Sequence record: NC_019517.1 | DNA: 64,000 nt | Strand: one strand, 5' to 3' | DNA from: Escherichia phage FV3 | In this document: positions 21,706 through 37,636 of the stretch, piece after piece | Position numbering within the stretch: position 1 is the first letter of the stretch | Layout: the number at the start of each line of letters is the position of its first letter | The notes under the pieces: model-generated | What the model was told of the DNA's origin: nothing | The model's input: only the letters and a program-made list of their open reading frames with translations | Database searches by the model: none | Translations under genes and position numbers: made by a program

Positions 21706-21907
21706 AACTGTTTATACTGTTCTTAGGGAGATTGCATTCTATACAGACCTTAGTTCAGTATCTTCATGGGAAAAGAGTGTGTATTTAAAATGGTGCGTGA
21801 AATTAGAGGGGACCTTCTAATGTTTCAAGCCATGTTTATTGAAATGCTCTCCGGAGTATTACTGCTGGTAGCCATTTTGGGTGGTGCGGCGCTAATGTAT
21901 AATTATC

Positions 21908-22111
21908 TTGAAAAAGGGGACAGTAATGACAAAAAATAAATCCTTAGAACAGGCTGAAAACCTTCTCCACGAGCTGGTAAAGGAGTGGAAAGTTGAATAC
22001 TCAGATTTTAATGCAAGAGAGGGGGAAGATTATTGGCCTACGGAGCGCTCAGAGGGAGAGTGGTATCAAGATTTCATAGAATGGTTATATCAGACGTGCG
22101 ATGAGGGGTGA
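21908..22111 (+). CDS. hypothetical acidic protein
   Basis: 67-aa ORF; likely ATG start at 21926. Confidence 0.4.
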   Translation: MKKGTVMTKNKSLEQAENLLHELVKEWKVEYSDFNAREGEDYWPTERSEGEWYQDFIEWLYQTCDEG

Positions 22112-22569
22112 CGATGTTTGTTAAATATGTAAAAACGTGCCTCAACAACCTTGGTAGAGAGCATTGGTACACCTTGCTTGAAAAAGGAGAAATTTTAACA
22201 AAATCTGGAAAGATAACTCTGATACCTTTGGATGATAAAGACCCGTCACTACTTGTCATAGATGATTACGTTACAGGTGTGTCGTACGAGGTCTCTGTGG
22301 AGAGGTTAATACGCAGATCTGGAGGGCCTTATGACCGAAGAGAGTATGTTTTCGATTCTGTTACAGAGAAGGAGGATCCGTCTCTAATGTTTAGGATGGT
22401 AATCAGGGATATGAAATCATCTATAAATAGGATTGTAAAGGACATTAAGGAGCCTTTTAGGGTAAAAGTTAAGAAGTTTTTTGATTCTAAGATTAACATA
22501 CTCGCCGTTGTGCTAGGCGTAATTCAACTTCTGTTAATTTTGCACTATCTTGAACTGTTGTTCAAGTAG
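22108..22569 (+). CDS. hypothetical protein with C-terminal TM segment
   Basis: 153-aa ORF. Confidence 0.5.
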   Translation: MTMFVKYVKTCLNNLGREHWYTLLEKGEILTKSGKITLIPLDDKDPSLLVIDDYVTGVSYEVSVERLIRRSGGPYDRREYVFDSVTEKEDPSLMFRMVIRDMKSSINRIVKDIKEPFRVKVKKFFDSKINILAVVLGVIQLLLILHYLELLFK

Positions 22570-22577
22570 TGTGCAAC

Positions 22578-22594
22578 AAGGCACAAAGGATGTG
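22578..22594 (+). promoter_or_regulatory. intercistronic stem-loop (copy 2 of 2)
   Basis: GGCACA-AAGGA-TGTGCC immediately after stop of 22108..22569; compensatory to 15620-15635. Confidence 0.4.
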
Positions 22595-22629
22595 CCATGA
22601 TTAAATAAACTAAGAAAGAGGTAGAGAGA

Positions 22630-22977
22630 ATGCCAAAGATTAAGTCGATATTAATGTGGGCAGCTGTTGTGGCTTTTGTAGGATACTGGACTTGGGAAAC
22701 TGAATTAAAAGATATCGGGTATACCAGTCTTGAGAGCAAGGCATGCATTGGCATAACCGATGCATTCAGGCAAAATGCTATGGATCACGAATGTGTCGAT
22801 GCAGATATAGATGAGAAACTGTCTAAGGACAAGGATTTTTACCATGGTCATGCCTTGCTTGATAGTGGTGACACTGTAGAATTCTGGTCGTGGTTCCGTG
22901 AAGATGGAACAATAAAGACAGCAGTAAAGATTTCCAACAAAGAGTTAATGCTGTTGCAGCAGAAGGAGGTGCAATGA
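22630..22977 (+). CDS. hypothetical protein with N-terminal TM/signal segment
   Basis: 115-aa ORF; RBS AAGAGGTAGAGAG. Confidence 0.5.
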   Translation: MPKIKSILMWAAVVAFVGYWTWETELKDIGYTSLESKACIGITDAFRQNAMDHECVDADIDEKLSKDKDFYHGHALLDSGDTVEFWSWFREDGTIKTAVKISNKELMLLQQKEVQ

Positions 22978-23261
22978 TCTGGATATCCTACACTGATGGC
23001 ACCATGCTGTATACTGCAGGTACTAGGTATGAAGTTCAGGAGGACGATAAAAAATTTATCGTAAAAACATTTGACAAGGACGAAAACCTTTTGTTAGAAT
23101 TGACTTACAAGGTTGGGGAGGTATCTAGCATCCAATTGGATTGCGGTCATAAAGATAACCCACTCAAGAAACCTGGGGTAGGTAAAGCTTCAGAAGAACG
23201 CCTGTCTCGTATTGCAGAAAGCGTTTCTGCACAAAAATCTAAGAAGGGGACTAGAAAATGA
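22974..23261 (+). CDS. hypothetical protein
   Basis: 95-aa ORF. Confidence 0.45.
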   Translation: MIWISYTDGTMLYTAGTRYEVQEDDKKFIVKTFDKDENLLLELTYKVGEVSSIQLDCGHKDNPLKKPGVGKASEERLSRIAESVSAQKSKKGTRK

Positions 23262-23452
23262 AAAACTTACGTTTTAACACTTATTACTACAACACTTTGA
23301 ATGATTTGTATTATATTATTCGAAGTAAAAGTCCTGAAACAGTCCTATTCTGCCGCGAACCTTTCAAAGGGGAGGAAGTAGAGTCTGAGATGAATGTTAG
23401 CCATATTACCTCTTTGTTGCTCTCAGGTGCAATGGAAGAAGCAATATTCTAA
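23258..23452 (+). CDS. hypothetical protein
   Basis: 64-aa ORF. Confidence 0.4.
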   Translation: MKNLRFNTYYYNTLNDLYYIIRSKSPETVLFCREPFKGEEVESEMNVSHITSLLLSGAMEEAIF

Positions 23453-23470
23453 ACCAGGCGGGAGGGTTTT

Positions 23471-23656
23471 ATGAAGCACTATTGCCTGTTTGGTAGGATG
23501 GGTGTAGAGTGTGATTGGGTTTTCTTAAAACTTGTCAGCATCCGAGAGTCAATCCCAGAGGAAGAGCAAGAAAGTGAGCTGATGTCATGGATCAGCTATT
23601 ACGGCAACACTTTCCGGTATGTCAAAATGGAAGGGCTGCCAAGCGAGGATGATTGA
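23471..23656 (+). CDS. hypothetical protein
   Basis: 61-aa ORF. Confidence 0.4.
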   Translation: MKHYCLFGRMGVECDWVFLKLVSIRESIPEEEQESELMSWISYYGNTFRYVKMEGLPSEDD

Positions 23657-23751
23657 TTATGATTGCATCAATATTAACGTTTATGGGTGGCGTGGCGGTC
23701 GGATTCATTATTTGCCTGTTTATAGTGATTATGTCTATGCGAGGCTGACTT

Positions 23752-24036
23752 ATGAAACTGTTCGAGTGGTTTAAAAAGTTTAAATACCGGGCCGTTGCTG
23801 TATCGAAATGGACTGTCCGCTGGGTGGACAATGATGGAACACAAATTCCAGGTGATCAGGATACCGGATACTGGGTTATGATGGAGAACGGATTTGGGAA
23901 AAGGAAGTTTAAATGTGTTGGTGCTCCTACCCTTTTAAATGTTAGAAGTGTGCCAGGGTACAGCACTCTGGTTGTTTGGGAGCTATCCGGTGTTCCTCCT
24001 GCCAATGTGCAATACTTGCCAAATTCAGAAAAATAA
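23752..24036 (+). CDS. hypothetical protein
   Basis: 94-aa ORF. Confidence 0.45.
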   Translation: MKLFEWFKKFKYRAVAVSKWTVRWVDNDGTQIPGDQDTGYWVMMENGFGKRKFKCVGAPTLLNVRSVPGYSTLVVWELSGVPPANVQYLPNSEK

Positions 24037-24048
24037 AAGGAGAAAATA

Positions 24049-24333
24049 ATGAGCAATGGTATTAGCAACAATGCTGCAGAGTTTAAAGTGATCTGTAAAG
24101 GCACTTATTGGATAGTGAAACAGAAGGTGTACCTATTCGGTTTCATACCGTTTTGGCAGAGATTTTGCTGGGGAGCTAACGAGCTTAAGAGATACGCCAC
24201 CAAGGCTATGGCACTTATTGGTATAGCTGAATACATTGCTGCCAGGGACAGAGAGGGGAAAACTTGTTACTACACTGCTGACGAGATTCGTAACAGTGTT
24301 TACGTTCCACAACCGCCCGATGGAGACCGCTGA
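24049..24333 (+). CDS. hypothetical protein
   Basis: 94-aa ORF; RBS AAGGAG. Confidence 0.45.
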   Translation: MSNGISNNAAEFKVICKGTYWIVKQKVYLFGFIPFWQRFCWGANELKRYATKAMALIGIAEYIAARDREGKTCYYTADEIRNSVYVPQPPDGDR

Positions 24334-24557
24334 TGAAAGTGAAAGTTTTAGATTCAAACTTCTATATTGGTCAAGAGCCTTTAGTTGGAAAAGTGTTTAC
24401 CGCTATCCCTAACGAAGATTATCCTGACCTTTTAAAAATAAAAGGGGAAGATCTTATTGCCGCTGGCGCGTCTCAGGAATGCTTTGACAGTCAGTGGGCC
24501 TACAACTTTGCCCTAGGGGAGGATGTGGAGATAGTGGAGGACGATTATGAAGGTTAA
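24333..24557 (+). CDS. small acidic protein, MKVK family
   Basis: 74 aa, MKVKVLDSNFYIGQ...; tandem paralog of next gene. Confidence 0.5.
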   Translation: MKVKVLDSNFYIGQEPLVGKVFTAIPNEDYPDLLKIKGEDLIAAGASQECFDSQWAYNFALGEDVEIVEDDYEG

Positions 24558-24801
24558 AATTCTTGACTCTAACGTCTACTTGGGACAATCATTCCTGAAG
24601 GGAAAGGTAGTACCTGCTGTATACTTCGAAGGGTTGCCGTGGGATGATCCTGTGCGGCAAAATCACAGCTATGTAGGCCACAATGTGGTGTTCATTTTGG
24701 GATCAGACCTGATCGCGGCTGGTGCTCCGGAATATTATTTCGGAGAGGACTCGTATTATGCCTTTGGGGTAGGGTCAGATGCAGATATTTTAGAGCCGTG
24801 A
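24547..24801 (+). CDS. small acidic protein, MKVK family
   Basis: 84 aa, MKVKILDSNVYLGQ... Confidence 0.5.
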   Translation: MKVKILDSNVYLGQSFLKGKVVPAVYFEGLPWDDPVRQNHSYVGHNVVFILGSDLIAAGAPEYYFGEDSYYAFGVGSDADILEP

Positions 24802-25212
24802 TTGGGGACTGTTGTGAAAAATAAACTGTTCAAAGTTACAATGAAAATTCGCGGAGCTTGGAGCGTAAAGCAAGGGCGTATCCCGGAATTTGAGAAAGAC
24901 TTCTACGTAGTCTCCACCTCTGAAGAGGCTGCATGCTGGCAGGCTGGCTATGCCTATGCAAGAACTTGGTACGAAGGGTACCAAACTGGGGGCTATGACG
25001 GAGAAATTGTCAGTAAGGGTGTGGAAGAAATTAATGTGTTGACAAGTGAAAAAGTTTTTGTTATAGTGCATCCTGATTCCAGAGTGAAGCATTACTGGAA
25101 TGCCAGAACAAAAACCTGGACACCATTTGCAGATTCTGCTACACCACTTTTAAACCAGAAAGCTCTTGACTCTGCCCCGAGCTACGGGGTTGTTGAAGAA
25201 AAAATAAGCTGA
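24802..25212 (+). CDS. hypothetical protein (paralog of 27016..27411)
   Basis: Shares HP.S...YW....WTP motif with 27016..27411; start uncertain (ATG at 24841). Confidence 0.45.
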   Translation: MGTVVKNKLFKVTMKIRGAWSVKQGRIPEFEKDFYVVSTSEEAACWQAGYAYARTWYEGYQTGGYDGEIVSKGVEEINVLTSEKVFVIVHPDSRVKHYWNARTKTWTPFADSATPLLNQKALDSAPSYGVVEEKIS

Positions 25213-25229
25213 AATAGTGGGGTACTTAC

Positions 25230-25520
25230 ATGATGGATTTAGTTTTGGATACTGATAACACCGAATCGTTTAAAAAAGATGGTGTAATAAGCATGGACCA
25301 ATCCTGCCATGCCAAGATTGACTCAAAATGGACCTACAAGTTTGACGGTGAGATCTTCGCAAATGATGAGAAGGTTGTGGATGCTGTAGCCATTTTAAAC
25401 GCTTTAGGGTATGACCCTGTGAACTCATTGATCAAGGATCCTGTTGAGTTTGCAGAGTATGTTCGTAAAATGGCAGATCTTGCAGTAGATATTTTAAAAA
25501 CTATCGACGACAAGCTGTAA
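25230..25520 (+). CDS. hypothetical acidic protein
   Basis: 96-aa ORF. Confidence 0.45.
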   Translation: MMDLVLDTDNTESFKKDGVISMDQSCHAKIDSKWTYKFDGEIFANDEKVVDAVAILNALGYDPVNSLIKDPVEFAEYVRKMADLAVDILKTIDDKL

Positions 25521-25526
25521 AAACTG

Positions 25527-25555
25527 TTGACACAACATTTGATCTTTAGTATCAT
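25527..25555 (+). promoter_or_regulatory. sigma70-like promoter (TTGACA-17-TATCAT) upstream of hpf-like gene
   Basis: TTGACA 25527-25532, TATCAT 25550-25555; followed by hairpin 25564-25584 and RBS AAGGAG. Confidence 0.5.
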
Positions 25556-25602
25556 TATTTCCAAAGAGGGTTTGGTTCCCTCTTCTTTAAAAGGAGCACG
25601 TT

Positions 25603-25920
25603 ATGCAGATTGAAATTACTGGCAACGTAGAGATCACTGAAGGTATGGTGTCTTTCATTTCCCACAAAATGTCCAAACTGGAGCGTTTGCACCCATCTGC
25701 CAACTATGCACGTGTGAGTGTAAAAGTTGAAAATGATCACCAGGAAGTTATGGCTTTTATTTTTGACAATTCTGGGAAAGAAGTTATCGCCAAAGCTAAA
25801 GGTAGCGATGCTTACGAGGCAACTGACCGTATGGTGGATGTTGCAGCACGCCAGTTGGCTAAATGCGGTGGAAAGAAAGGTAAGGGAAAAGGTAAAGTAA
25901 AGATTGACTTTTGGGATTGA
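25603..25920 (+). CDS. hpf: ribosome hibernation promoting factor homolog (HPF/RaiA/YfiA family)
   Basis: 105 aa; MQIEITGNVEITE...KLERL...VSVKVE...AKAKGSDAYEATDRMVDVAARQLAK aligns along its length with bacterial HPF as recalled; Lys/Gly-rich tail. Confidence 0.75.
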   Translation: MQIEITGNVEITEGMVSFISHKMSKLERLHPSANYARVSVKVENDHQEVMAFIFDNSGKEVIAKAKGSDAYEATDRMVDVAARQLAKCGGKKGKGKGKVKIDFWD

Positions 25921-26057
25921 GGTGCTACAATGAGTATGATTAAGAAATTAGTCCCAAATGTAGAGATTGCATGCTTTGAAATTATGTTTGCAATCGCAGT
26001 TGTAGTTAATGTGTTAGGTTACGACTATTAATATCAAATAATTGAGGAGACCTCTAA

Positions 26058-26327
26058 ATGAAAATTAAATTATTCAAAACTGAGCTGGCAGACAAAAACT
26101 GCGGACTGGTTGAAGGCATGATCGTTGAAGCACAACCAGTGGACTACATGAAGGTGGTTCGTGATGCTCTGGGTGAAGGTTTTGATCTGATGGAGCCAGC
26201 TCTGCGAGAAGATGTCATCGAGATGGCTAAAAAGCACACACCTGAAGGCTTGGTAGTGTTTGTTGCTCCAGGTAACGGAGAAGAGTTGATTGTAACTCCG
26301 GATGTGTATGAGGTTGTAGAGGAGTAA
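26058..26327 (+). CDS. small acidic protein, MKVK family
   Basis: 89 aa, MKIKLF... ending YEVVEE; RBS GAGGAGA. Confidence 0.5.
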   Translation: MKIKLFKTELADKNCGLVEGMIVEAQPVDYMKVVRDALGEGFDLMEPALREDVIEMAKKHTPEGLVVFVAPGNGEELIVTPDVYEVVEE

Positions 26328-26415
26328 TCTTGGGTTAGCCATACTTCCTCGACAAGAAAGGTTTGTAATTATTTGTGGGAAAGGAATCCCCATCTCTTAC
26401 CAGAGGTGATACTGT

Positions 26416-26679
26416 ATGATTGTTTATTTTAAAACTTCAGGTGGATACCCTGATTCTCAAAGCTTGATTGGAAAAACGTGCACAGCATACTCGCCTCTTG
26501 ATGATGAGGTAAGTGATACCCTACGAAATATGTATCGGATTGATCCACAAGAAGCTTTTGATCAGAACCTTGTATTTGTCAAGGGCTCAGACATGAAGTC
26601 TTTGGGGGCATTTCCTGAAGCAGATGATAATGCTGTTTATTCGTTTATGACCCCTTTTGAAGCTATGGTTGTTGGGTGA
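26416..26679 (+). CDS. small acidic protein (probable family member)
   Basis: 87-aa ORF. Confidence 0.45.
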   Translation: MIVYFKTSGGYPDSQSLIGKTCTAYSPLDDEVSDTLRNMYRIDPQEAFDQNLVFVKGSDMKSLGAFPEADDNAVYSFMTPFEAMVVG

Positions 26680-26683
26680 GAAT

Positions 26684-27016
26684 ATGAAAGTACGCTTTAT
26701 TGGTGAAACAATTCCTGTGCATCTCCGGTCGCCTGAGGATTCTGCAGATCTTGCATCTCAAAAGGCCAGAGGGTATGATAAGAAAGTAATCTCAACCGAT
26801 GTAGAGCTTGAGGCTACCAGTCTGCCTGACCCTGCTGCATTCTTTAATCATTATGGATACTATTTCAGCAATCTGATGAATATCGGTGAGCTTGTGTTTA
26901 TTAGTGGTGGAGAAATAGTTAGCAAGCTTGGCGGCGATCCGGATGTCTTTCATGAAACCTGCCCTTTTGCATTTGTGGTAGGTTCAGATGTGGAAGTTAT
27001 TGAGGAGGTGCGGTAA
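26684..27016 (+). CDS. small acidic protein (probable family member)
   Basis: ATG at 26684 (MKVRFIGE...), ends VEVIEEVR. Confidence 0.45.
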   Translation: MKVRFIGETIPVHLRSPEDSADLASQKARGYDKKVISTDVELEATSLPDPAAFFNHYGYYFSNLMNIGELVFISGGEIVSKLGGDPDVFHETCPFAFVVGSDVEVIEEVR

Positions 27017-27411
27017 TGGTAAGTCTATACCGTGTTGAGTATAGCTCAGATACTGTATACAACGTAAGAAGCAAAGATCGTAGCGACAGAGTGCAAGAAA
27101 TGTATGTTCTTGCCGACAGTCCGTTATCTGCAGCGTTTAAGGCAGGAGCTCTTGCATCTCGTTGGAAATTCGAGGGTGGATCTTTCTATGAAGAAACTCT
27201 TGAAGATTCTGTTGTTATTTCTTCTGTAGAGGTTTCAACTGACTACGAAGGGAAAAAGTTCGTAATGCGGCACCCACACAGCAACATTGCGTACTACTGG
27301 GATGTTCTGAACAACGAGTGGACTCCAGATCTTCAGAAGGCCACTGTTCTGACTCCGTTCTTGGCAGATAAGTTCCCACCAGAAGGTAATTTATCTGCAC
27401 TGTTTCAGTAA
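27016..27411 (+). CDS. hypothetical protein (paralog of 24802..25212)
   Basis: 131 aa; shared HPHSNIAYYW...WTP motif. Confidence 0.5.
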   Translation: MVSLYRVEYSSDTVYNVRSKDRSDRVQEMYVLADSPLSAAFKAGALASRWKFEGGSFYEETLEDSVVISSVEVSTDYEGKKFVMRHPHSNIAYYWDVLNNEWTPDLQKATVLTPFLADKFPPEGNLSALFQ

Positions 27412-27429
27412 TTTTATTCTACACAGGTG

Positions 27430-27458
27430 TTGACAACACCAACCCTGTGTGCAATAAT
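27430..27458 (+). promoter_or_regulatory. sigma70-like promoter (TTGACA-17-AATAAT)
   Basis: TTGACA 27430-27435; TGTGCAATAAT resembles an extended -10. Confidence 0.4.
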
Positions 27459-27487
27459 ACCTTCATCTTAACAAGACAGGAGACTGA

Positions 27488-27748
27488 TTGATGAAGATTA
27501 AATTGAAAAACCTTGAAATGGCAGAGGTTCAGGAAGGTGTTGATTTCCGCTCTAAAGATGGCGACATCTTAGAGGCGAATATCCCGACCTATAAGTTGAT
27601 TAAAGGTTTTGGCAACGTTCCTGAAGAGGATATTACAGACATTCTTATGATGTTGATCCTTGACGGGACCGTGTTTGTAGGTGAAGGTGAGAACGCTATT
27701 GCAATCCCAGGCCATTTTTATGAAGTAGTTGACGAAGAGGTGCTGTAA
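27488..27748 (+). CDS. small acidic protein, MKVK family
   Basis: 86 aa, MMKIKLKNLE... ending YEVVDEEVL. Confidence 0.5.
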   Translation: MMKIKLKNLEMAEVQEGVDFRSKDGDILEANIPTYKLIKGFGNVPEEDITDILMMLILDGTVFVGEGENAIAIPGHFYEVVDEEVL

Positions 27749-28099
27749 ATGAAAGTAGAGATCACAGGTTTTGATATGAATGTGGTTCCGGAAGATATTT
27801 TAGCTAAACTTCCGGAAGGTTTTGGTAACGGTGTTGTGGTGGATGCTGTCCCTCCTACCAAAGACATTCTGCTGCAGTATGGTGTAGCAGAGGAAGATGT
27901 CGATAAAGTTCTTACAATGATGGCAATAGACCGTGTTGTCGTTGTTAAAGGTCTTGAAGGTTTTGATGACGATCCTCTGATTATTCGTGGTGATGACTAT
28001 CGCATCATCGACAACGAAGGCCAAGAGTTCTACGAACCTTCTGCTGAAGATGTTCTTAACTTACTACTGGAAGCAGGCACCGAAGAGGAGGAAGAATAA
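27749..28099 (+). CDS. small acidic protein, MKVK family
   Basis: 116 aa, MKVEITGFDM..., poly-Glu C-terminus. Confidence 0.5.
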   Translation: MKVEITGFDMNVVPEDILAKLPEGFGNGVVVDAVPPTKDILLQYGVAEEDVDKVLTMMAIDRVVVVKGLEGFDDDPLIIRGDDYRIIDNEGQEFYEPSAEDVLNLLLEAGTEEEEE

Positions 28100-28428
28100 T
28101 GAAAATTGATCCGTTACTAAAGGCTCGTGCAGAAAAAGCATACACTATCAAGCTGACCTCTCTGGTCCCTACTTGTCATCCGGATGTAGGTTGGCCTGAA
28201 GGCCTGGTAGAGGGGACTGTAACAGCTGCATACCTTCCTAACATCAAATACCTCATGGAGATCTTGGAGATGGATGAGGAAACGGCAGAACAGTTCCAGT
28301 TAGACATGAAGCAAAGTGGGACTCTGGTTATTCACGGGTGGTATAATACTAAAGATGCAGAAGATCCCCTGGTAACTTCTAATCTGGCATATGAAATCTT
28401 AGGACCTTTGAACTTGGGGGAAGACTAA
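28099..28428 (+). CDS. hypothetical acidic protein
   Basis: 109-aa ORF, ATGA-coupled to neighbours. Confidence 0.45.
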   Translation: MKIDPLLKARAEKAYTIKLTSLVPTCHPDVGWPEGLVEGTVTAAYLPNIKYLMEILEMDEETAEQFQLDMKQSGTLVIHGWYNTKDAEDPLVTSNLAYEILGPLNLGED

Positions 28429-28715
28429 TGAAAGGTTTGGTTAAGATCAAGATTAAAGACACCAAGGGAGAACTCAGCCATTTTGGAATTAACGATGGTG
28501 ACGAGCTGATCGCCCACCTGCCTACCAAGGAAGTTGTAAGCAAAGCTGTTGCCGGAGAAGAAGATGCAATGCAGGCTGCAGGTGTGGATGAAAACTATGT
28601 AGCAATGTGTATGTGCCGAGATCAGGTTGTTCTGTATAAAGCGTATCGACCAAATGGAGCACCTGAGTGGCTTGTTTTCCGACCCGAAGGGTATGAAATT
28701 TTAGAGACGCTATGA
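28428..28715 (+). CDS. hypothetical protein
   Basis: 95-aa ORF. Confidence 0.45.
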   Translation: MKGLVKIKIKDTKGELSHFGINDGDELIAHLPTKEVVSKAVAGEEDAMQAAGVDENYVAMCMCRDQVVLYKAYRPNGAPEWLVFRPEGYEILETL

Positions 28716-28804
28716 TAAATCTTGCCAAGGTTGCAACGGCACTGTTAATTATTTGCTGGATAGTGACCTTGGCACTATGTCTTGTATTTCATTAAGGGGG
28801 CTGT

Positions 28805-29068
28805 ATGAACATCCTGATGTGGGTTGTGGCAGTGGCGTTTGTTGCGTGCCTCTCTTGTTGGGTTGCTGTGAGGATTTCTATAGCCACTCTTCGGAAATTA
28901 GGGTTCTCAGAGTGGGATATTAATATCCTCTCTTTTCGCAATGAGACGATCTCAGCTGCCTTACTGTGCAAGAAGTTCAAGTGGAAACCTTGGGAGGTCA
29001 TGAGCTATCTAAGAACAGGGGATATTCCTGAGAGATTTAAAAAAGTTCTTGACGGCGAAGATAAATGA
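28805..29068 (+). CDS. small membrane protein
   Basis: 87 aa with N-terminal TM segment. Confidence 0.45.
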   Translation: MNILMWVVAVAFVACLSCWVAVRISIATLRKLGFSEWDINILSFRNETISAALLCKKFKWKPWEVMSYLRTGDIPERFKKVLDGEDK

Positions 29069-29096
29069 TAGTATAGTTACTAACAAGAGGTGAGGA

Positions 29097-29237
29097 ATGA
29101 CTGATTTTACTGAAGCTTTAATGATGGCCTTATCCGTTTTAGCGCTATCTGTGTGTTTTGGGGCGTTATTCACATCTCTGGTTAAAGTTTTACATACCAT
29201 ATTATCACCCAAGGAGCACAGTAATGACGAAGATTGA
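29097..29237 (+). CDS. micro-ORF encoding 46-aa hydrophobic peptide
   Basis: ATG after GAGGTGAGGA RBS; single TM-like segment; not in ORF track (<60 aa). Confidence 0.35.
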   Translation: MTDFTEALMMALSVLALSVCFGALFTSLVKVLHTILSPKEHSNDED

Positions 29238-29475
29238 CTTAAATGCTGGAGACCATGTTGTTGTCAAATGCATCGGAGATTATCTTGGATTCACAATCGG
29301 CAATACTTACGAGGCGGTAGTGGCGAAGGTTTACCATGATAAAGTCCTCAGCCTTGTATTTGACTGTGATGATGACGGAGATGACCGCTACGTCTGTGAG
29401 GTGCTGGCTCGTGACGATAGTGAAGACCAGAAATTCCTGGTTACCGAACTGAACGGTATTTTTGTAGAACGTTAA
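29224..29475 (+). CDS. hypothetical acidic protein
   Basis: ATG at 29224 after AAGGAG RBS (ORF track start 29158). Confidence 0.45.
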   Translation: MTKIDLNAGDHVVVKCIGDYLGFTIGNTYEAVVAKVYHDKVLSLVFDCDDDGDDRYVCEVLARDDSEDQKFLVTELNGIFVER

Positions 29476-29809: not shown

Positions 29810-29814
29810 CGACA

Positions 29815-30497: not shown

Positions 30498-30522
30498 CAA
30501 AATATCAAATTTAAGGCACCTA

Positions 30523-30710: not shown

Positions 30711-30739
30711 TTGACACATTACCGCTCCTGTGATAGTAT
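30711..30739 (+). promoter_or_regulatory. sigma70-like promoter (TTGACA-17-TAGTAT)
   Basis: TTGACA 30711-30716, TAGTAT 30734-30739. Confidence 0.4.
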
Positions 30740-30857
30740 CCTCACATAGTTTGTAGAATATGAAATACGCAATGAAAACATTATCTGAGGTTTTAGTGGT
30801 GATCCTGATGATCATTACGTCCATAGCAGTTGTTGCCGGAATACTCACGGGTGGAAC

Positions 30858-31046
30858 ATGACCAACACACATGCACCTAAAGAGACATCTGAAGAAGCGA
30901 CTATAGAGAAAAACTTCAATTCTGAGGATTCTTTATCTCCGTCTCAGGTAGATCCTGAGGCTGATGACCTGACGTGGGAAGACATCGTAGACATCTGGTT
31001 CTCTATCATGCCTGAGCACGAAGAGTTCAGAGGTGGGAGACTATGA
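30858..31046 (+). CDS. hypothetical acidic protein
   Basis: 62-aa ORF. Confidence 0.4.
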   Translation: MTNTHAPKETSEEATIEKNFNSEDSLSPSQVDPEADDLTWEDIVDIWFSIMPEHEEFRGGRL

Positions 31047-31165: not shown

Positions 31166-31381
31166 ATGAAGATAGAAATATTTGGTGGAGCTGACAACAC
31201 TCGTGGCCTGATTTACCTTGAATTCGATGAATCATACCTGCCAGAGGTGTTAAATATAGACTCTGTTGCTGAGGCTTTGGGAGTAAACCCTAAAGAACTC
31301 CACTCTTGTGCTGAGATCGATGGTTGGGAAGAGACCATGAACATTGATTTCAGTGAAGTAGAGGATGAACCGCTGGACTGA
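31166..31381 (+). CDS. small acidic protein, MKVK family
   Basis: 71 aa, MKIEIFGGADNT...; last rightward gene before strand switch. Confidence 0.5.
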   Translation: MKIEIFGGADNTRGLIYLEFDESYLPEVLNIDSVAEALGVNPKELHSCAEIDGWEETMNIDFSEVEDEPLD

Positions 31382-31593
31382 CACACAATTAGCTGCCCGG
31401 CTAAAGTGCTGGAAGCACCTATAACACATCTTTCAACTAAATTTCCTACCACCACAATCACTTACCTCCCACACATGACTGTTTGCTTGTTTAGTGAGCA
31501 GTCATTCCTTGACATTCTTGCCTATCCTGATAAAATTAAGTTCTTCTCTTTTCTTTTACCGAGTAATTCGGGTTTTCTGTTCTCTTCGGTTTG

Positions 31594-31810
31594 AAGGGGT
31601 ATGGAGATACACCTGAGTGAACAGGGTGAACAACCGAACCTTTAGCTATGGCATTAGCATGGCGAAGCGGACGGGTGACGAAAGAGGGGCCGGAGGACAC
31701 CAGTCACTGCCATATGGTATATGGGTGATAACCTGAAGAGTCTGAATAAGTGTTTAAGTACCAGTCAGAGGAAAAGGTGAATGGTAGCCGAAGGGGGAGG
31801 GGGGTTTCTT
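31594..31810. other. G/purine-rich non-coding segment, candidate structured RNA
   Basis: No ORF >=60 aa on either strand; composition unlike flanking AT-rich DNA; ends in G-run GGGGGAGGGGGG; strand undetermined. Confidence 0.3.
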
Positions 31811-32589
31811 GTATCTTTAATTTGTATACTTTATATACACTTGTAAACCAATTCAATTAGAATATGGATACCACACAAAGTGGATAGAGGCAAATATTCC
31901 CTATTAAACTTGAATTATTTATAGAAAATACCACAACACTGCTTAAGTCTTTGATTTTACACACAAATATTACAAATATCCTGCCTCTATATTTAACATA
32001 CCTGTAACATATTCCATACTCTCCCTGATTGATCAATTCCCCAACTACATCCCCATATTTTCCCTTCCTGTACTACCCCTGCCCCGCCGGGAGTCCCGTC
32101 ATATCTGGCTTTCCAGCAAATATCACACCCACAAATATCATTGCCTGAAGAGGGTTTCATCCCATAATACCTGCCTTACCCGAAGAGCGCTTCATACACC
32201 ACGTAAATTTTTTAATTGACCTGCAATTTTCCTGCAGACCCACCCCCTGCCCAGCCGGAGAGGTTGGCTTTTCCCACACAGGCCTGAAGAGTCAGCCAGA
32301 AATATCTGAAGGGGGTCCAGTTCTACCACGATTTTGACCTGACCTACAGGAGCGCTGCCAGGCGGACGAAATGGGAATACTTCTCATTCTTATAACAATT
32401 CTCAAATATCGGGGCAGTGAGGCAAATTAATAGGCGAGGCCGTTCACACAGTGGCACAACATTTGCAAGCTATTTTGCGGGGGTGAATGAGAATACCTAT
32501 CATTGTGAGAATAGTTATCATTACGGGCAATTTAACATAATACCCATTATGCGCACCACTGGCGATACATACAGGGATTGATAACATGG

Positions 32590-33230
32590 GTTACTGTTTA
32601 CGCATATAACAATTGTATTTCTTATTATTTGTGGGGGATATAGTTAGCAACCAATAGATTAGTTATTAACCTGCGGACTTCTGACCGTCTAGACGTCCAA
32701 ACGCCCACACCACAAGGATTATACATACACTCCTGCATGTAAACAGGGCCGCAAAAATGCTACCATACCAGTTTGTAAATTTTCCATGCAGCACTTGACA
32801 AAGAGGAGAAAAACTTGTCTGACACACTGGACACCTTATACACCTTATACACTTTCGATACAATAACGATTGTTATTATTTCATGTTTCACTGTTCACGT
32901 ATAGATTGTTCCTGCATAGACTGTTTACGCCTGGATAGTTTACACCTTGACAGTTTACGCAGATATGATAAGCCATGACATTCGTTTGCATAGTTGCCTT
33001 ATTGTTACAGGTAAAACAATTACATTGTTAACTATTTCTTATCTTTCTCTTAGTCATCTAATGATTCCAGTCAGTATAGTTATGTACAGTAAACATTAGA
33101 CGACTAAATATTTCTCTGATTATAGTAACCTATCGTGACAATTTCTAACTGTTTACGAAAAATGTTGACACCTGGGCAGGTTTATGTTATGCAGTTTGTA
33201 CGAATAATTATTTTGTACAGGTATTGACTA
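32590..33230. repeat. iteron-like degenerate direct repeats (TGTTTACGC family) in non-coding strand-switch region
   Basis: CTGTTTACGC / TGTTCACG / GTTTACAC / AGTTTACGC / TGTTTACG / GTTTGTACG copies, densest 32889-32960; AT-rich; no convincing ORFs. Confidence 0.4.
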
Positions 33231-33605
33231 TTCCGTTATTCTGTGGTTGGAATAAATACTTTGCAGGCTATAGAATGGTGATCGTACGTGGATTCTGAGA
33301 TCTGTCGGCTATAGTTACACCCGATTTTTCACGTAGGACACGCTTTTTGGTTTGTGTAAGTGTATGACTTATAAGGGTTTTTAATTGTTGACAGTATACT
33401 GAAGATGTGCATCAGGTTAAATTTTGTGCAATAGCTGCATTACGTGCAATTTTGGGAGAGAAAACGGGTAAAAATAGCACCGCTACCACACAATGAAAGG
33501 TTATGCAATAGCTATTTTACATGTATATTTGTACAGTGTGCGGGATTGATGGCTCGTCAATTATTCCACTTGTCAGGTAGGGCCGTTTATGGTAGGAAAA
33601 GAGCA

Positions 33606-33633
33606 GACAAAAAGAAAGGGGCCTAAGCCCCCT
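33606..33633 (-). terminator. intrinsic terminator (leftward transcripts)
   Basis: GGGGGC-TTA-GGCCCC hairpin followed by U-run on minus strand, just after stop of 33647..33910. Confidence 0.45.
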
Positions 33634-33646
33634 TGATAATGTTGTA

Positions 33647-33910
33647 TTATTTGTTGCTCATCCAGTTTTCCCAAGCTGCCTGATAATCTGCCTCACTGCG
33701 GCGGATCTCTTCTTGTTCTTCAAGCCGGATCTCTTCTTCCAGGTACCCAAGGATATCGGATTTTTTGGTCTGGCGTAACATCCAATCATCTTTTTTACGA
33801 GTAAAGATCTTGTACGCTTTCTCGCAAACCTCTTTTTTACTACCTTTTTGGACTTCAAGAACTTTGTAGGCCATGTACTGAACTAGTTTGAGCTGATCAA
33901 GACGTTTCAT
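33647..33910 (-). CDS. hypothetical protein
   Basis: 87-aa ORF. Confidence 0.5.
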   Translation of the reverse strand: MKRLDQLKLVQYMAYKVLEVQKGSKKEVCEKAYKIFTRKKDDWMLRQTKKSDILGYLEEEIRLEEQEEIRRSEADYQAAWENWMSNK

Positions 33911-33973
33911 GATGTTTACCTCTTTATGGGGTTCTGGTTTGGTGTGGGCCTTTTGGCCCGTGTCATTATCTTA

Positions 33974-34246
33974 TTACTTGCGGCGGCAAAATTCAAGCGT
34001 TTTTAATTGATAATCTTCCTCAGCCTGGAGTACAACCGCCTCGATCATTTCGTTGGCATTGGTGAAGCCATACCCTTTAGCGAACTCATCCGCGCCACCT
34101 TCGTGATCATGTTCTGCGTTCATCGCTTCCACAAAATGGAATTCCAGGTTATTGAGATAAGGGCTTGATGTTCCGTCCTCTTTTTCGATGAGATCCCAAA
34201 TAGCATTAAAACGTGATTCGACTTCTTGGTTAATCCAGCTTGACAC
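33974..34246 (-). CDS. hypothetical acidic protein
   Basis: 90-aa ORF. Confidence 0.5.
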   Translation of the reverse strand: MSSWINQEVESRFNAIWDLIEKEDGTSSPYLNNLEFHFVEAMNAEHDHEGGADEFAKGYGFTNANEMIEAVVLQAEEDYQLKTLEFCRRK

Positions 34247-34586
34247 GGCGTTTTCCTCTCTTCTGGTTGTTGTGTGGGCACTTTTGCCCCTTCAAGGTAA
34301 ATGCTACCCCACCACCCGGCAGATGTCAACGGTTTTTATAGTTTTTTATATAACGGGCACCCCTGGTGATTGTCTCCCCCCGTCGCCAGGTGCCGCCCGT
34401 GAAACAAGTATAACAAAAAACAGGACCATTGCAAGCCCTGTTTATTATCTTAAAACCAGGTGCCAACCGTTTCCAATAGATCACTGACTATCAGGACAAT
34501 ACTGATCAGCACATACCTAACCATAAAGGGAAAGATCGCCAACATTGCCGCCACGATCCCCATGGTGATAATTATCTTTCTCATGA

Positions 34587-34871
34587 TTAACGGGTCACGT
34601 AAGTTTTCCCGTTTACTGTTATCGGCAGATCCTCCAGGTCTGGATCTTCTTTAAGGTCGCGAGCAAGCTCACCGCACCGGATGCCCTCGAATCCGTAGTA
34701 CTCTGTTGTGCCGTCCTGGAAAGTTTTTGCGGCAAGGCATAACCGATAAGTAACACCGATTTGATTGACGGCATGGATATCAGTTAGATCTACCTCTTTT
34801 GCCAGCTCTTTAGCCATTACAGGCGCATTAAGTCCAATAACCAGGGCAACCACTGCGATCATCTTTTTCAT
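34587..34871 (-). CDS. small secreted protein with signal peptide
   Basis: 94 aa; N-terminal MKKMIAVVALVIGLNAPVMA. Confidence 0.5.
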   Translation of the reverse strand: MKKMIAVVALVIGLNAPVMAKELAKEVDLTDIHAVNQIGVTYRLCLAAKTFQDGTTEYYGFEGIRCGELARDLKEDPDLEDLPITVNGKTYVTR

Positions 34872-34960
34872 GTTGTCTATCCTCTTTCTGCTGCGTTTAA
34901 GGCGGTTACCGCCGCCTGTTTATGCTTTGTTAGTTAATGGGGCGTACGGTATAGATTAAA

Positions 34961-35185
34961 CTATGCTGTACGCTCAACTATAACAACGGCTTGAGGGATC
35001 TCACCTTCCACCACTATCAAGGCTTTTTTCTGCGTGATAGATATCTTTACCCGCTTCAGCGTGGCGGTAAAATCTTTCATTTCGTCACGTGGTGTTTTAG
35101 TGCAATACCAGATCTCAGGCTTACCTATTTGCAAGCCGCGTAAAAATTCCGTTTTGCCTGTTTTGTTCGTGATCATTTGTTTCAC
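34961..35185 (-). CDS. hypothetical protein
   Basis: 74-aa ORF. Confidence 0.45.
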   Translation of the reverse strand: MKQMITNKTGKTEFLRGLQIGKPEIWYCTKTPRDEMKDFTATLKRVKISITQKKALIVVEGEIPQAVVIVERTA

Positions 35186-35363
35186 CTTACCCGATACCGT
35201 GGGAAGATAGGATCATGTTAGCCATAGTTGCAACCACTCCAACCGATAATGCCATGCCAACTACTACAACCGTGAAAATTTTTTCTAACATGATTCCACC
35301 CTCATTAATGGGCGTTGCCTTATTGCCCCGCCCTATGTCGTACACTTTTCTTCTGATCCTCTG

Positions 35364-35627
35364 TTAGCATACGATAGCGATCACGCCGCCACAAATAAAA
35401 GGTAAATCAAAACTGTCTAACTTGCAAGCTATTTTTAAACGAAAGGCAACATAAAAGAAAAGTTGCAAACAATCGATCATTGTGTTAGCTGTTGAAACGC
35501 TGCCAGCATTAAACACCACCCCGCCCACGGCGTTAAACGTTGCGTTACTCACGAAAGTGAAAAGGCAAGCGATCACGGTGGCGATCATAATGTTGCGTTT
35601 TGTCAATCTGTAAATGATGTTTTTCAT
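35364..35627 (-). CDS. small membrane protein
   Basis: 87 aa, two hydrophobic segments. Confidence 0.45.
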   Translation of the reverse strand: MKNIIYRLTKRNIMIATVIACLFTFVSNATFNAVGGVVFNAGSVSTANTMIDCLQLFFYVAFRLKIACKLDSFDLPFICGGVIAIVC

Positions 35628-35696
35628 TCTGTCATGTTGGCGGCATCATTGCCGCCCTACGAAATACATTCTACCCGATTTGTAATTGTTGTCAAA

Positions 35697-35921
35697 CTAA
35701 TTTTTACAAGGGATCAGTAAACTTCTTGCTACTGCTTCGCGTAGTCCTTGACTTTTTATCAGATCTATTGTTGCAGGATGGCAAGTAAAAGCCTTTGACC
35801 ATTTTTGATCCCCTGGTTTACGGGCAAAAATGTAAACTTCCCCGTCGATTTCATCCCAACGAGTATTGCTTGTTAGTTTTTTAAGCGCCATGATGATTTC
35901 CCTTTTAGTTGTGAGCGGCAC
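35697..35921 (-). CDS. hypothetical protein
   Basis: 74-aa ORF. Confidence 0.45.
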   Translation of the reverse strand: MPLTTKREIIMALKKLTSNTRWDEIDGEVYIFARKPGDQKWSKAFTCHPATIDLIKSQGLREAVARSLLIPCKN

Positions 35922-35966
35922 TATTGCCGCCCTATGTGATACATCTTAAACTAATTTAAAACGTTG

Positions 35967-36200
35967 TCAACACTTTTCAAAAAATTTTTCTGCCGTGATA
36001 TTCTTCCCGGTAGGGTTCGCTACTTTCAAAATTTTATCATGCACTGGACGCCCAAAAGAATAAGCGCCGTACACAGTGCACCAATAATCGCCGTCAGGCT
36101 GTACTATTACCGCCGCATAGGGTACGCCTTTTTCGTTTTTGCTGACAAAATAGATCACATTGCCATTAATAGCCTCAGCGCGTTTAATTTGTTCCATCAT
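35967..36200 (-). CDS. hypothetical protein
   Basis: 77-aa ORF. Confidence 0.45.
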   Translation of the reverse strand: MMEQIKRAEAINGNVIYFVSKNEKGVPYAAVIVQPDGDYWCTVYGAYSFGRPVHDKILKVANPTGKNITAEKFFEKC

Positions 36201-36266
36201 GATGATTCACCTATCTTTATTTTTTTTTCATAGTTTCAGGAGGGGCCTTTTTCGGCCCCGCCAGGC

Positions 36267-36566
36267 TTATTTATTGATGGCGTGCAGCGGGAAAGGTACG
36301 CCAGGTTGATAGATAACTTTTACAACCTCATCGGGGCAAAAGAAATTACAAAATTCACCCCGATAAGCTTCATCTTCTTTTAATTCTTCATCAACATACT
36401 TAAAAAAGTAGTCGATGCTTGGATAATCCTGGCCGGGATTATAGTCGACCATTGTCAGGACTAGTTCAAGATCGTTGCGCAGGATATGCATACCCGCTTT
36501 TAAGTATTTTGCTTCCATTTCTACTACATCGCCAACGGTAACAATAGCCATGATTTTAACTCCCAT
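36267..36566 (-). CDS. hypothetical protein
   Basis: 99-aa ORF. Confidence 0.5.
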   Translation of the reverse strand: MGVKIMAIVTVGDVVEMEAKYLKAGMHILRNDLELVLTMVDYNPGQDYPSIDYFFKYVDEELKEDEAYRGEFCNFFCPDEVVKVIYQPGVPFPLHAINK

Positions 36567-36777
36567 CTATCCGGTTAATGATTGGGGGGCCGCCCCCCCT
36601 GGCACGTCCTATTATCCATATTGTAGGGCTTGATGCAAGTACTTCTTTAAAAATTTTTAAGCGCCTTGGGGGCCGCTGTAGCGCTAAAATAACAAAGGCC
36701 ATGCAACCGCATAGACTTTATGTGATTATGTCGCTGCAGGCCCCGCCACGGGCCTTATTTTGCATCATTTGCCGGAA

Positions 36778-37083
36778 TTATCTGGAGAAAACATCGTTCA
36801 CAATAGCGATCACAATGCCGCCCACCTTGTCACGGTCAACAATGCACAAATCACCATAGATCATGTGGTAGTCTGGATGATCTTTCACGGAATAGTCAAT
36901 GAGTGTCTTCTTATCGTCCAGCTTTTTGACTTCCATGGTCATTGTAATGAATTGATCGTTAAAGGCACTATTGCGGAAGACCATTACCTGGCCGCCTTGA
37001 CATCCAGTGATCTCAACTTCCACGCCGTCTACGATCTGACCATCAAAGAAATAAAGATTATTGGCGGGTATAAACATGATCAT
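36778..37083 (-). CDS. hypothetical protein
   Basis: ATG at 37083 (MIMFIP...) after AAGGAG RBS. Confidence 0.5.
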   Translation of the reverse strand: MIMFIPANNLYFFDGQIVDGVEVEITGCQGGQVMVFRNSAFNDQFITMTMEVKKLDDKKTLIDYSVKDHPDYHMIYGDLCIVDRDKVGGIVIAIVNDVFSR

Positions 37084-37121
37084 TGCTCCTTTTTGCACTG
37101 ATTATTTTAACAGGGTTTAAA

Positions 37122-37170
37122 TTTACTTTATTGATGGCCCTGGAGTCAAGGCCATCTAAAAATAAACTTT
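37122..37170 (-). promoter_or_regulatory. repeat copy 1 of 3: promoter-like element with -35 inside a palindrome
   Basis: On minus strand GATGGCC-TTGACTCCAG-GGCCATC then 17 nt then TAAA(C/T)T; ~47-bp core near-identical at 40841-40888 and 41463-41510. Confidence 0.5.
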
Positions 37171-37369
37171 ACAGGCCTACAATATCTTTAATTCGTTTTA
37201 CTGCTGCCTCAGCGCCTTGAGGGTAAAAATTATGGTAACCAATCACGCGGGTAATACTGATCGCCGCCTGATGATCTTCATAATACCCCTTGAATATTTC
37301 TTGACCATCAACCAGCACAGCAATTTTTTCTTCTTTTTTGAAGTTAATAACGCGGATATTGTTGCTCAT
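37169..37369 (-). CDS. hypothetical protein
   Basis: 66-aa ORF. Confidence 0.4.
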   Translation of the reverse strand: MSNNIRVINFKKEEKIAVLVDGQEIFKGYYEDHQAAISITRVIGYHNFYPQGAEAAVKRIKDIVGL

Positions 37370-37516
37370 TTTGTTTCTCCTTTTGGAACTTTGTCTGTGT
37401 GGTGGGGAGTGTCTCCCCGTTGATTGTTATTATCCATATTTTTGACCGGGTTGCAACACCCCGGAAGAAAAATTTTTTGAAAAAAGTTAGGCCCCCAGGG
37501 ATCGGGGGCCGTTATC

Positions 37517-37636
37517 AGTTACTTACAGCGATAAAATACATCCCTACGCCTAACAATATTTCAAGGGCGATGATCTCAAGCCATACCATAACACGGCGCG
37601 CCTTATCGGTGCGGGGCTTATCCTTGGGTGTCATCG
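37517..37636 (-). CDS. micro-ORF encoding 39-aa hydrophobic peptide
   Basis: ATG after AGGGGGAG RBS; MTPKDKPRTDKARRVMVWLEIIALEILLGVGMYFIAVSN. Confidence 0.3.

Follow-up and report, generated by a model that had tools for sequence, protein, structure and literature searches.

Are the shortest hydrophobic open reading frames (ORFs) of a phage genome genuine genes and, if so, what might their products do? The question is raised by five ORFs, here called ORF1 to ORF5, in a 64,000-nucleotide (nt) stretch of Escherichia phage FV3 (NC_019517.1), referred to throughout as the window. An earlier note described them as micro-proteins hidden below a cut-off of 60 amino acids (aa). The answer reached here is that all five are probably genuine genes for mutually unrelated, single-pass inner-membrane proteins of 33-46 aa, which belong to genus-restricted accessory arrays and may modulate the host envelope, the certainty being lower for ORF2. 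Considered individually, ORF1, ORF3, ORF4 and ORF5 are very likely to be real membrane micro-proteins, and ORF2 is reasonably likely to be one. Any particular mode of action for the five, drawn as it is from analogy, is at best a tentative proposal. The genes themselves are already known, having been present in GenBank since 2008 and labelled as membrane proteins in 2013.

All five ORFs exist in the sequence. ORF1 (21820..21939, plus strand; 39 aa, MFQAMFIEMLSGVLLLVAILGGAALMYNYLEKGDSNDKK), ORF2 (29097..29237, plus strand; 46 aa, MTDFTEALMMALSVLALSVCFGALFTSLVKVLHTILSPKEHSNDED) and ORF3 (30760..30861, plus strand; 33 aa, MKYAMKTLSEVLVVILMIITSIAVVAGILTGGT) lie exactly where the earlier note had placed them. 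ORF4 (37515..37634, minus strand; 39 aa, MTPKDKPRTDKARRVMVWLEIIALEILLGVGMYFIAVSN) had been given as 37517-37636, which is 2 nt off, with its strand omitted, and ORF5 (41309..41428, minus strand; 39 aa, MSTTRQYTKVTIIVCVVGYILAQMLMSSANSFAKFFLNF) lies beyond the end that had been stated for the finding. The proposed single transmembrane-like segment was recovered in five of five: each peptide is at most 50 aa long and has one hydrophobic segment of membrane-spanning length, with a best 19-residue Kyte-Doolittle mean of 2.21, 2.34, 3.08, 2.15 and 2.03 for ORF1 to ORF5, respectively, against a usual cut-off of 1.6. In ORF1, the helix occupies residues 7-25 and is followed by a charged C-tail, and ORF4 combines a basic N-tail with a C-terminal helix that contains two Glu residues. 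The Hessa sum is negative for ORF1, ORF2 and ORF3 and borderline positive for ORF4 (+2.1) and ORF5 (+1.6), the helices of which hold Glu or Gln.

Hydrophobicity alone, however, is no evidence of a gene, since 31 of the 174 six-frame ORFs of 25-59 aa located between 19.5 and 45 kb clear the same cut-off. What sets the five apart from this background is that they are intact in relatives and that four of them show an excess of synonymous substitutions. Their ribosome-binding sites (RBSs) were evaluated by the energy of the duplex with the anti-Shine-Dalgarno (anti-SD) sequence, using 31 longer genes of the region as a reference (median -8.2 kcal/mol). Good sites, which had been ascribed to all five, were found for ORF1 (-8.2 kcal/mol), ORF2 (GAGGTGAGG, -7.1 kcal/mol), ORF4 (AGGAGG...GGGGGAG, -10.7 kcal/mol) and ORF5 (GGGGG, -10.7 kcal/mol), values that just 4-11% of all start-codon positions reach; the description fails for ORF3 (+0.5 kcal/mol).

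The phage belongs to Vequintavirus, the rV5-like myophages of E. coli. In megablast searches, HMD-6 is 97.5% identical, followed by YP-6 at 96% and rV5 at ~91%, and queries spanning 21000-31500 and 20000-43000 retrieved more than 110 near-collinear phage genomes; every fetched record with a taxonomy line was placed in this genus. For alignment, eight relatives that are 91-97% identical to the window region were used: HMD-6, YP-6, AlexBoehm, rV5, EduardKellenberger, 12A_SA_NWU, nom and O157 typing phage 14. ORF2, ORF3, ORF4 and ORF5 are intact in all eight. ORF1 is intact in six of the seven relatives that carry its region, the exception being typing phage 14, in which a deletion fuses ORF1 with a downstream gene.

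Evidence that these frames encode peptides also comes from the substitutions within them. Every distinct nucleotide change was counted once, and the expected non-synonymous fraction was 0.74-0.80. Pooled over the five ORFs, 64 changes are synonymous and 42 non-synonymous (p=2e-17); this excess persists after removal of the codons that overlap neighbouring genes, and shifted frames over the same spans display the opposite pattern. Individually, the ratio of synonymous to non-synonymous changes is 19:4 for ORF1 (p=5e-10), 14:9 for ORF3 (p=4e-4), 14:9 for ORF4 (p=6e-5; 16:11 and p=3e-5 when 15 distinct sequences are taken) and 13:12 for ORF5 (p=4e-4). Used on its own, such a test gives false positives on the antisense frames of real genes; thus, the opposite strand of each target was checked separately. 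An 82-aa ORF antisense to ORF3 (30624-30872, minus strand) is intact in one of the eight relatives, and a 124-aa ORF opposite ORF4 (37399-37773, plus strand) is intact in none. Because these rival ORFs are broken in relatives, there is no intact opposite-strand gene that could mimic the excess. Within the helices, substitutions preserve hydrophobicity in all five peptides (mostly V/I, A/V and S/G exchanges, with G27V in ORF3), and selection acts mainly on the helix. On the strength of these patterns, ORF1, ORF3, ORF4 and ORF5 can be regarded as coding with high confidence.

Each ORF is widely distributed, but solely within this genus. When the peptides were compared by tblastn with 50,697 phage records, each was found in 112-119 of these, all from Vequintavirus: 116 for ORF1, 116 for ORF2 (with the frame open in 116 of 116 and ATG or GTG as the start), 112 for ORF3, 119 for ORF4 (118 of which cover at least 80% of the ORF) and 115 for ORF5. 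Outside the genus, the same search returned noise only (E ~7), and in Pfam nothing rose above threshold for any of the five peptides. A HMMER search with ORF2 against 1.84 billion representative proteins yielded one cluster, its own; an 843-aa protein also matched in that search was rejected as spurious. Back-translated degenerate patterns for ORF4 and ORF2 detected just two contigs in IMG/VR, both rV5-like; thus, this resource adds almost no diversity.

The claim that the five had been hidden by a length cut-off does not hold, as GenBank records, the rV5 genome paper and PHROGs all include them. In Table S3 of that paper, ORF131 (39 aa), ORF156 (46 aa), ORF181 (39 aa) and ORF193 (39 aa) are each listed as "membrane protein, 1 TMD", the single transmembrane domain (TMD) having been predicted with TMHMM and Phobius (Kropinski et al. 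2013, Virol J 10:76, PMC3606486). These four hold positions orthologous to those of ORF1, ORF2, ORF4 and ORF5, respectively; ORF3 is unannotated in rV5 itself. Coding sequences (CDSs) of the same length occur at the syntenic places in the annotations of HMD-6, YP-6, AlexBoehm, rV5 and others, and in HMD-6 ORF5 is labelled "putative membrane protein". Each ORF also has a PHROG family of its own, matched over the whole profile and with no function recorded. The orthologues thus identified are rV5 ORF131 (rv5_gp126), bas56_0164 and phrog_15251 (E 1.4e-30) for ORF1; rV5 ORF156 (rv5_gp151), bas56_0139 and phrog_16755 (E 1.3e-35) for ORF2; bas56_0133, bas59_0133 and phrog_34195 (E 1.6e-19; the profile begins at the second Met) for ORF3; rV5 ORF181 (rv5_gp176), bas56_0112 and phrog_13629 (E 7.3e-32) for ORF4; and rV5 ORF193 (rv5_gp188), bas56_0102 and phrog_16391 (E 3.8e-31) for ORF5. 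The rV5, BASEL and PHROG orthologues share length, position, neighbours and overlaps with the ORFs of the window and are 85-100% identical in aa sequence. The differences are not essential ones: ORF1 and ORF2 start with ATG in the window, whereas several orthologue lineages use GTG, and the ORF1 tail is SNDKK in the window and SNGKK in rV5.

The observation that ORF1 and ORF2 end in SNDKK and SNDED, and that each overlaps the following gene by 14 nt, was confirmed. Its reading as a special repeated module was not, because the tails arise from the initiation signals of the next gene. The tail codons AGT AAT GAC correspond to that gene's spacer and start (A-ATG-AC) read one base out of frame, and the G, E and K residues ahead of the tail correspond to its RBS (GGGG or GGAG). 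The gene after ORF1 starts with ATGGCA or ATGGTA (MAK or MVK) in the rV5 lineage, and it is for this reason that the ORF1 tail reads SNGKK there. An identical 11-mer, ACAGTAATGAC, occurs at these two junctions only, and the rV5 lineage has ACAGCAATGG instead. Overlaps of this kind are ordinary in the region: among 18 gene overlaps in AlexBoehm, the lengths are 1 nt (four cases), 4 nt (six), 11 nt (three), 14 nt (three), 17 nt (one) and 23 nt (one), and at most of these junctions the tail of the upstream protein is rich in G, E, R, K or D, encoded by the embedded RBS. Read from the junction sequences, the SND tail is thus a by-product of the next gene's RBS, spacer and ATGAC(A/G)AA start rather than a functional motif of the peptides or the mark of a duplicated module. 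Paralogy of ORF1 and ORF2 was likewise rejected: BLASTP produced no alignment of the two at E <= 100, the junction 11-mer is lineage-specific, and the tails are accounted for by the RBS reading. The two downstream proteins have only their first three residues, MTK, in common. One is the 61-aa product (MTKNK...) of the gene at 21926..22111 (plus strand), the RBS and start of which fall within the terminal 14-nt region of ORF1 and which shows a ratio of non-synonymous to synonymous polymorphism (pN/pS) of 0.03; the other is the 83-aa product (MTKIDL...) of the gene at 29224..29475 (plus strand), with a pN/pS of 0.04.

The transcriptional settings of the five ORFs differ. ORF1 lies inside a long operon, its ATG overlapping the stop of an upstream 43-aa ORF (TAATG). 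ORF2 is the first cistron after a sigma-70-type promoter at 29049..29077 (plus strand; TTGACG-17-TATAGT, 10 of 12 consensus positions). ORF3 is likewise the first cistron after its promoter, at 30711..30739 (plus strand; TTGACA-17-TAGTAT with an extended -10 TG, 10 of 12), and has an ATGA overlap with the next gene (30858-31046). ORF4 comes last in a unit headed by a 123-aa protein with two N-terminal helices (37854-38225), and 4 nt past its stop stands a strong intrinsic terminator, GGCCCCCGATCCCTGGGGGCC plus a T-run (37490..37510, minus strand). ORF5 forms a short stand-alone unit. The promoter at 41281..41308 (minus strand; TTGACA-16-TATACT, 11 of 12), known as P192 in rV5, drives the gene after ORF5, and its -35 box begins 1 nt past the ORF5 stop. 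Small-gene arrays carry sigma-70-type promoters, and in the minus-strand array promoter-like sites occur at roughly double the frequency seen in shuffled sequences, the best ones all being on the coding strand. From this promoter consensus we infer early expression of the region; three products of the same region were detected as structural proteins in the rV5 virion proteome (PMC3606486).

An A/T tract, AAAATTTTTCTT, takes in the last seven codons of ORF5 (AKFFLNF). The tract is a recurrent one, with minus-strand copies at 37465-37476, 41319-41330, 43527-43538 and 48951-48962. Six matches were found at no more than one mismatch, versus 1.55 expected, and the two copies inspected lie 8-10 nt upstream of a -35 box. 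As one copy encodes the C-terminus of ORF5, the tail of this peptide is under dual constraint.

Arrays of small accessory genes flank the ORF-free centre of rV5-like genomes, and ORF1 is translationally coupled within its long operon. In the mechanism that we propose, the five ORFs would be transcribed by the host RNA polymerase. The peptides would be too short for co-translational targeting and may thus be inserted post-translationally via the signal recognition particle (SRP) together with YidC or SecYEG, a route described for proteins under ~45-50 aa (PMC12648545). The positive-inside rule predicts an N-out/C-in orientation for ORF1 and ORF2 and an N-in/C-out orientation for ORF3, ORF4 and ORF5. 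Once inserted, the peptides could engage host or phage membrane proteins through helix-helix binding and so tune envelope functions during infection, acting neither as enzymes nor as essential lysis factors.

Several known systems invite comparison. Coliphages carry a number of short membrane-anchored peptides, among them T4 Ac, Imm, Sp and rI, phiX174 E, MS2 L and phage M LysM (37 aa); such peptides act on host envelope proteins, superinfection or lysis timing, and most are dispensable in the laboratory. None of them shares homology with the five, however, and T4 Imm, Sp and rI are 83-97 aa long and have defined phenotypes. Single-gene lysis peptides serve genomes that lack a holin-endolysin system; in rV5-like phages, by contrast, both an endolysin and spanins are present. 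O-spanins are recognised by a lipobox with the consensus [LVI][ASTVI][GAS]C. An o-spanin or lipoprotein identity was rejected for all five peptides: ORF1, ORF3 and ORF4 contain no Cys, and the LSVC of ORF2 and the IIVC of ORF5 place a Val before the Cys, off consensus. The charged C-tails are confined to ORF1 and ORF2, where the RBS and start of the next gene encode them; ORF3, ORF4 and ORF5 have almost none. In their way of working, the peptides most plausibly resemble bacterial small membrane proteins, which likewise are shorter than 50 aa, consist of one helix with no catalytic domain and are probably inserted post-translationally by SRP with YidC or SecYEG (PMC12648545). This is a resemblance at the level of class only; there is no sequence similarity, and the phage peptides are genus-restricted. 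One bacterial member, MgrB, works through a periplasmic Cys pair, of which the phage peptides have no equivalent.

A number of points weigh against the view that the five are membrane proteins acting on the envelope. Our literature search found no ribosome profiling or whole-cell proteomics for the genus, and a search for functional or transcriptomic data on Vequintavirus small proteins returned nothing specific. As no relative falls below ~90% identity, little is proved by an open frame alone. ORF3 is without an RBS in this window, and several relatives have GGAG just 3 nt ahead of its ATG. For ORF2, purifying selection is not significant (5 synonymous and 12 non-synonymous changes, p=0.32, in 14 loci representing 11 distinct alleles). 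The ORF2 tail (residues 30-46) evolves freely, with one synonymous and eight non-synonymous changes. No homologue was found outside the genus by tblastn, Pfam or HMMER with ORF2, so that no function can be transferred. The binding of membrane partners is suggested solely by analogy with bacterial small membrane proteins. Finally, EduardKellenberger (Bas59), a plaque-forming phage of the BASEL collection, is without window positions 21155-25126, including ORF1; ORF1 is thus dispensable for plaque formation.

In the first of four other explanations, ORF2 and ORF3 are translated mainly to bring ribosomes to the downstream gene or to shape the mRNA, the peptide being incidental. Each of the two stands immediately behind a consensus promoter and runs past the next start, ORF2 by 14 nt and ORF3 by 4 nt; the downstream RBS lies inside the small ORF; and ORF2, with its tail at 1:8, shows no significant purifying selection. 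The 83-aa gene after ORF2 is followed by a conserved 101-aa "transcriptional regulator" (29504-29809), which is also conserved in Mydovirus, Seunavirus and Certrevirus, and in these three genera no small hydrophobic ORF was found upstream of the regulator operon. ORF2 is thus genus-specific, and, as the conserved operon occurs elsewhere in the Vequintavirinae with no small ORF upstream, such an ORF is unneeded for the operon generally. On the other side, ORF3 has a significant synonymous excess, and the helix core of ORF2 (residues 7-29) is near-invariant over 11 alleles, with three synonymous changes and only two non-synonymous ones (A16V and V29I). Moreover, 33-46 uniformly hydrophobic codons exceed what coupling needs, and the same hydrophobic design recurs at other operon positions, in ORF1, ORF4 and ORF5. 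We consider this explanation unlikely; among the ORFs, ORF2 is the best fit for a role purely in leading or coupling. ORF2 is probably coding, although selection on its peptide as a whole is not demonstrated.

A second possibility is that the peptides are membrane-damaging toxins, of a type I-like or host shut-off kind, which would oligomerise, depolarise or permeabilise the inner membrane and thereby halt metabolism or exclude other phages. Hok, TisB and Ldr are small hydrophobic toxins with a single helix and charged flanks. In size and in their single helix with charged flanks, the phage peptides match small hydrophobic toxins of this sort (PMC12648545), and the acidic residues in the ORF4 helix or the Gln in the ORF5 helix could line a pore. 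However, at least ten such peptides per genome, expressed from strong promoters, would be hard to square with a productive lytic cycle if every one of them were strongly toxic. A scan for antisense promoters inside the five ORFs found none with at least 10 of 12 consensus positions; as this was a promoter consensus scan only, an antisense-RNA partner may yet exist. The earlier note's suggestion of host membrane-protein inhibitors or toxins is plausible by analogy; membrane damage as the explanation for the five appears quite unlikely.

A third explanation assigns ORF1, ORF4 or both, together with neighbouring membrane proteins, to a holin, antiholin or pinholin machinery that would time lysis. 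No holin has been firmly assigned in the genus; in the words of the LL12 paper, it "could not be positively identified". One candidate, put forward by the rV5 authors, is ORF129 (78 aa, 2 TMDs), the homologue of which lies at 21469-21705, two genes upstream of ORF1. The candidate of the BASEL annotators is the two-helix protein of 123 aa at 37854-38225, which shares the transcription unit of ORF4. ORF1 and ORF4 adjoin these tentative holins. Holins and antiholins are small membrane proteins that end in a charged C-terminus; the C-tail of ORF1 is charged, but is encoded by the RBS and start of the next gene, and the ORF4 helix contains two Glu. Nevertheless, both holin calls rest on transmembrane prediction alone, and known holins are generally larger than these peptides or have at least two helices. 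ORF1 and ORF4 differ from them in having a single helix and 39 aa and in not standing beside an endolysin: the rV5 lysozyme gp89 (71575-72045) and the LL12 spanins gp65 and gp66 are encoded elsewhere in the genome, outside the window. Their units have sigma-70-type promoters and not the late-type motif of rV5. The ORF1 block, moreover, can be deleted. The ~4-kb segment 21155-25126 that the viable EduardKellenberger lacks holds, in addition to ORF1, both the ORF129 homologue and ORF133, which was detected in rV5 virions; thus, the ORF129 homologue is unlikely to be the essential holin. Taken together, a role for ORF1 or ORF4 in lysis timing seems improbable.

It is very improbable that the five are not genes at all but chance ORFs, kept open by close kinship and propagated by automatic annotation: the relatives are indeed all 90-97% identical, small hydrophobic ORFs are common (the 31 of 174 in six frames), the ORF2 substitutions are compatible with neutrality and antisense frames can mimic a synonymous excess, yet that excess is strong and frame-specific for ORF1, ORF3, ORF4 and ORF5, no intact opposite-strand gene exists to give a mirror effect, the RBSs match those of accepted genes in strength, and the ORFs fill gaps in the gene map exactly, beside promoters and a terminator.

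The five genes, read as single-pass membrane proteins of accessory arrays, are not isolated cases. Of the 77 CDSs annotated for this region in AlexBoehm, 15 encode fewer than 60 aa, and nine of these 15 are transmembrane-like, versus six of the 62 larger ones. The earlier note overlooked at least five further small one-helix ORFs of the window, among them homologues of four in the AlexBoehm set. The first of these four is a 29-aa one-helix ORF at 23659..23748 (plus strand; MIASILTFMGGVAVGFIICLFIVIMSMRG), equivalent to bas56_0157, which is variably present, being missing from HMD-6, YP-6, nom and EduardKellenberger. In relatives that have it, such as rV5, a 10-nt repeat, GCGAGGCTGA, flanks this ORF, and in the window the upstream copy is degenerate (GCGAGGATGA); in HMD-6, YP-6 and nom, exactly the interval of the ORF is missing and one repeat copy is kept. 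The second, a 33-aa one-helix ORF at 25930..26031 (plus strand; MSMIKKLVPNVEIACFEIMFAIAVVVNVLGYDY), corresponds to rV5 ORF145 ("membrane protein, 1 TMD") and is intact in eight of eight relatives, with too little variation for a selection test. The remaining two are a 44-aa hydrophobic ORF at 34450..34584 (minus strand; MRKIIITMGIVAAMLAIFPFMVRYVLISIVLIVSDLLETVGTWF), corresponding to rV5 ORF170 ("membrane protein, 1 TMD"), and a 34-aa one-helix ORF at 35187..35291 (minus strand; MLEKIFTVVVVGMALSVGVVATMANMILSSHGIG), a relative of rV5 ORF173 that shares just 53% identity with its AlexBoehm allele. Both sit in a mosaic segment (34365-36208) that is 85-92% identical at the nt level to phi92-like phages (Justusliebigvirus), which otherwise have no nt match to the region.

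Two further ORFs are candidates for genes that current annotation has missed; together with a frame conflict upstream of ORF4, they are the only new items to emerge from this analysis. One is a 27-aa one-helix ORF at 28712..28795 (plus strand; MINLAKVATALLIICWIVTLALCLVFH) that has an ATGA overlap with the stop of the upstream gene. It reaches a best 19-residue Kyte-Doolittle mean of 2.80, its frame is open in eight of eight relatives, and none of the eight annotated relative records has a CDS at this position. With eight synonymous and eight non-synonymous changes (p=0.02), selection on this candidate is weakly supported. The other is a 41-aa one-helix ORF at 37618..37743 (minus strand; MDRTTEEIIFLVMCVAIVLLGTIVNHVTTNRRKGGDDDTQG), which ends 17 nt into ORF4 and represents an alternative frame of a 73-81-aa CDS. 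That CDS (37618-37876, minus strand) is annotated in many GenBank records, and in some the gap is left empty. The 41-aa candidate has a conserved ATG and is open in 15 of 15 distinct sequences. Its frame shows 14 synonymous and 16 non-synonymous changes (p=0.008), versus 6:24 (p=0.67) for the annotated frame over the shared stretch, and the 3' half of the 73-81-aa CDS is without a coding signature. The annotated CDS may thus be a frame mis-annotation, or a case of overprinting. A longer, 60-aa hydrophobic version of the candidate (37618-37800) was rejected as a gene, as its first ATG is ACG in five of eight relatives and its 5' part has no coding signal; only the version that starts at the conserved internal ATG therefore stays as a candidate.

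More speculatively, rV5-like phages may carry a dozen-odd unrelated one-helix micro-proteins, of which ten annotated ones and two candidates would be represented here, and at least one of them might specifically inhibit or modulate some inner-membrane complex of the host. In another reading, the pair formed by the 41-aa candidate and ORF4 could, with the 123-aa protein, constitute the missing holin and antiholin of the genus. Both are offered as possibilities well short of being favoured.

Some features of the wider region deserve mention. Genes run on the plus strand to ~31.6 kb and on the minus strand from ~34 kb onward, the two convergent arrays being separated by an ORF-free stretch of ~2.4 kb (~31600-34000) that the rV5 paper calls "non-coding". 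This stretch contains direct repeats resembling ACTGTTTACGC at 32593 and, with a spacing of 30 nt, at 32890, 32920 and 32950, as well as several long inverted repeats, and could be an origin or iteron region. Scans of the window for tRNAs and Rfam families, this stretch included, were empty. Among the matching records, ~18 are titled "Campylobacter phage" and are ~90% identical over the aligned parts; the C9 record is flagged UNVERIFIED and classified as Vequintavirus. Most likely, these are rV5-like phages of E. coli that were mislabelled or co-isolated.

As a discovery, the significance of these findings is small, since the genes were published before. Should one of the peptides prove to target a particular membrane protein of the host, it could serve as a small tool or an antibacterial lead, no particular target being indicated at present. 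What the analysis adds is evidence of peptide-level purifying selection for four of the five, so that these genes are no annotation noise. It also provides a simple explanation of the apparent shared C-terminal motif and places the "putative holin" ORF129 of rV5 in a block that is missing from a viable relative. Furthermore, it brings forward two candidate micro-proteins overlooked by current annotation, one of which implies that a widely copied CDS may be mis-framed. Lastly, the census shows small proteins with one helix to be systematically present in the accessory arrays of this genus.

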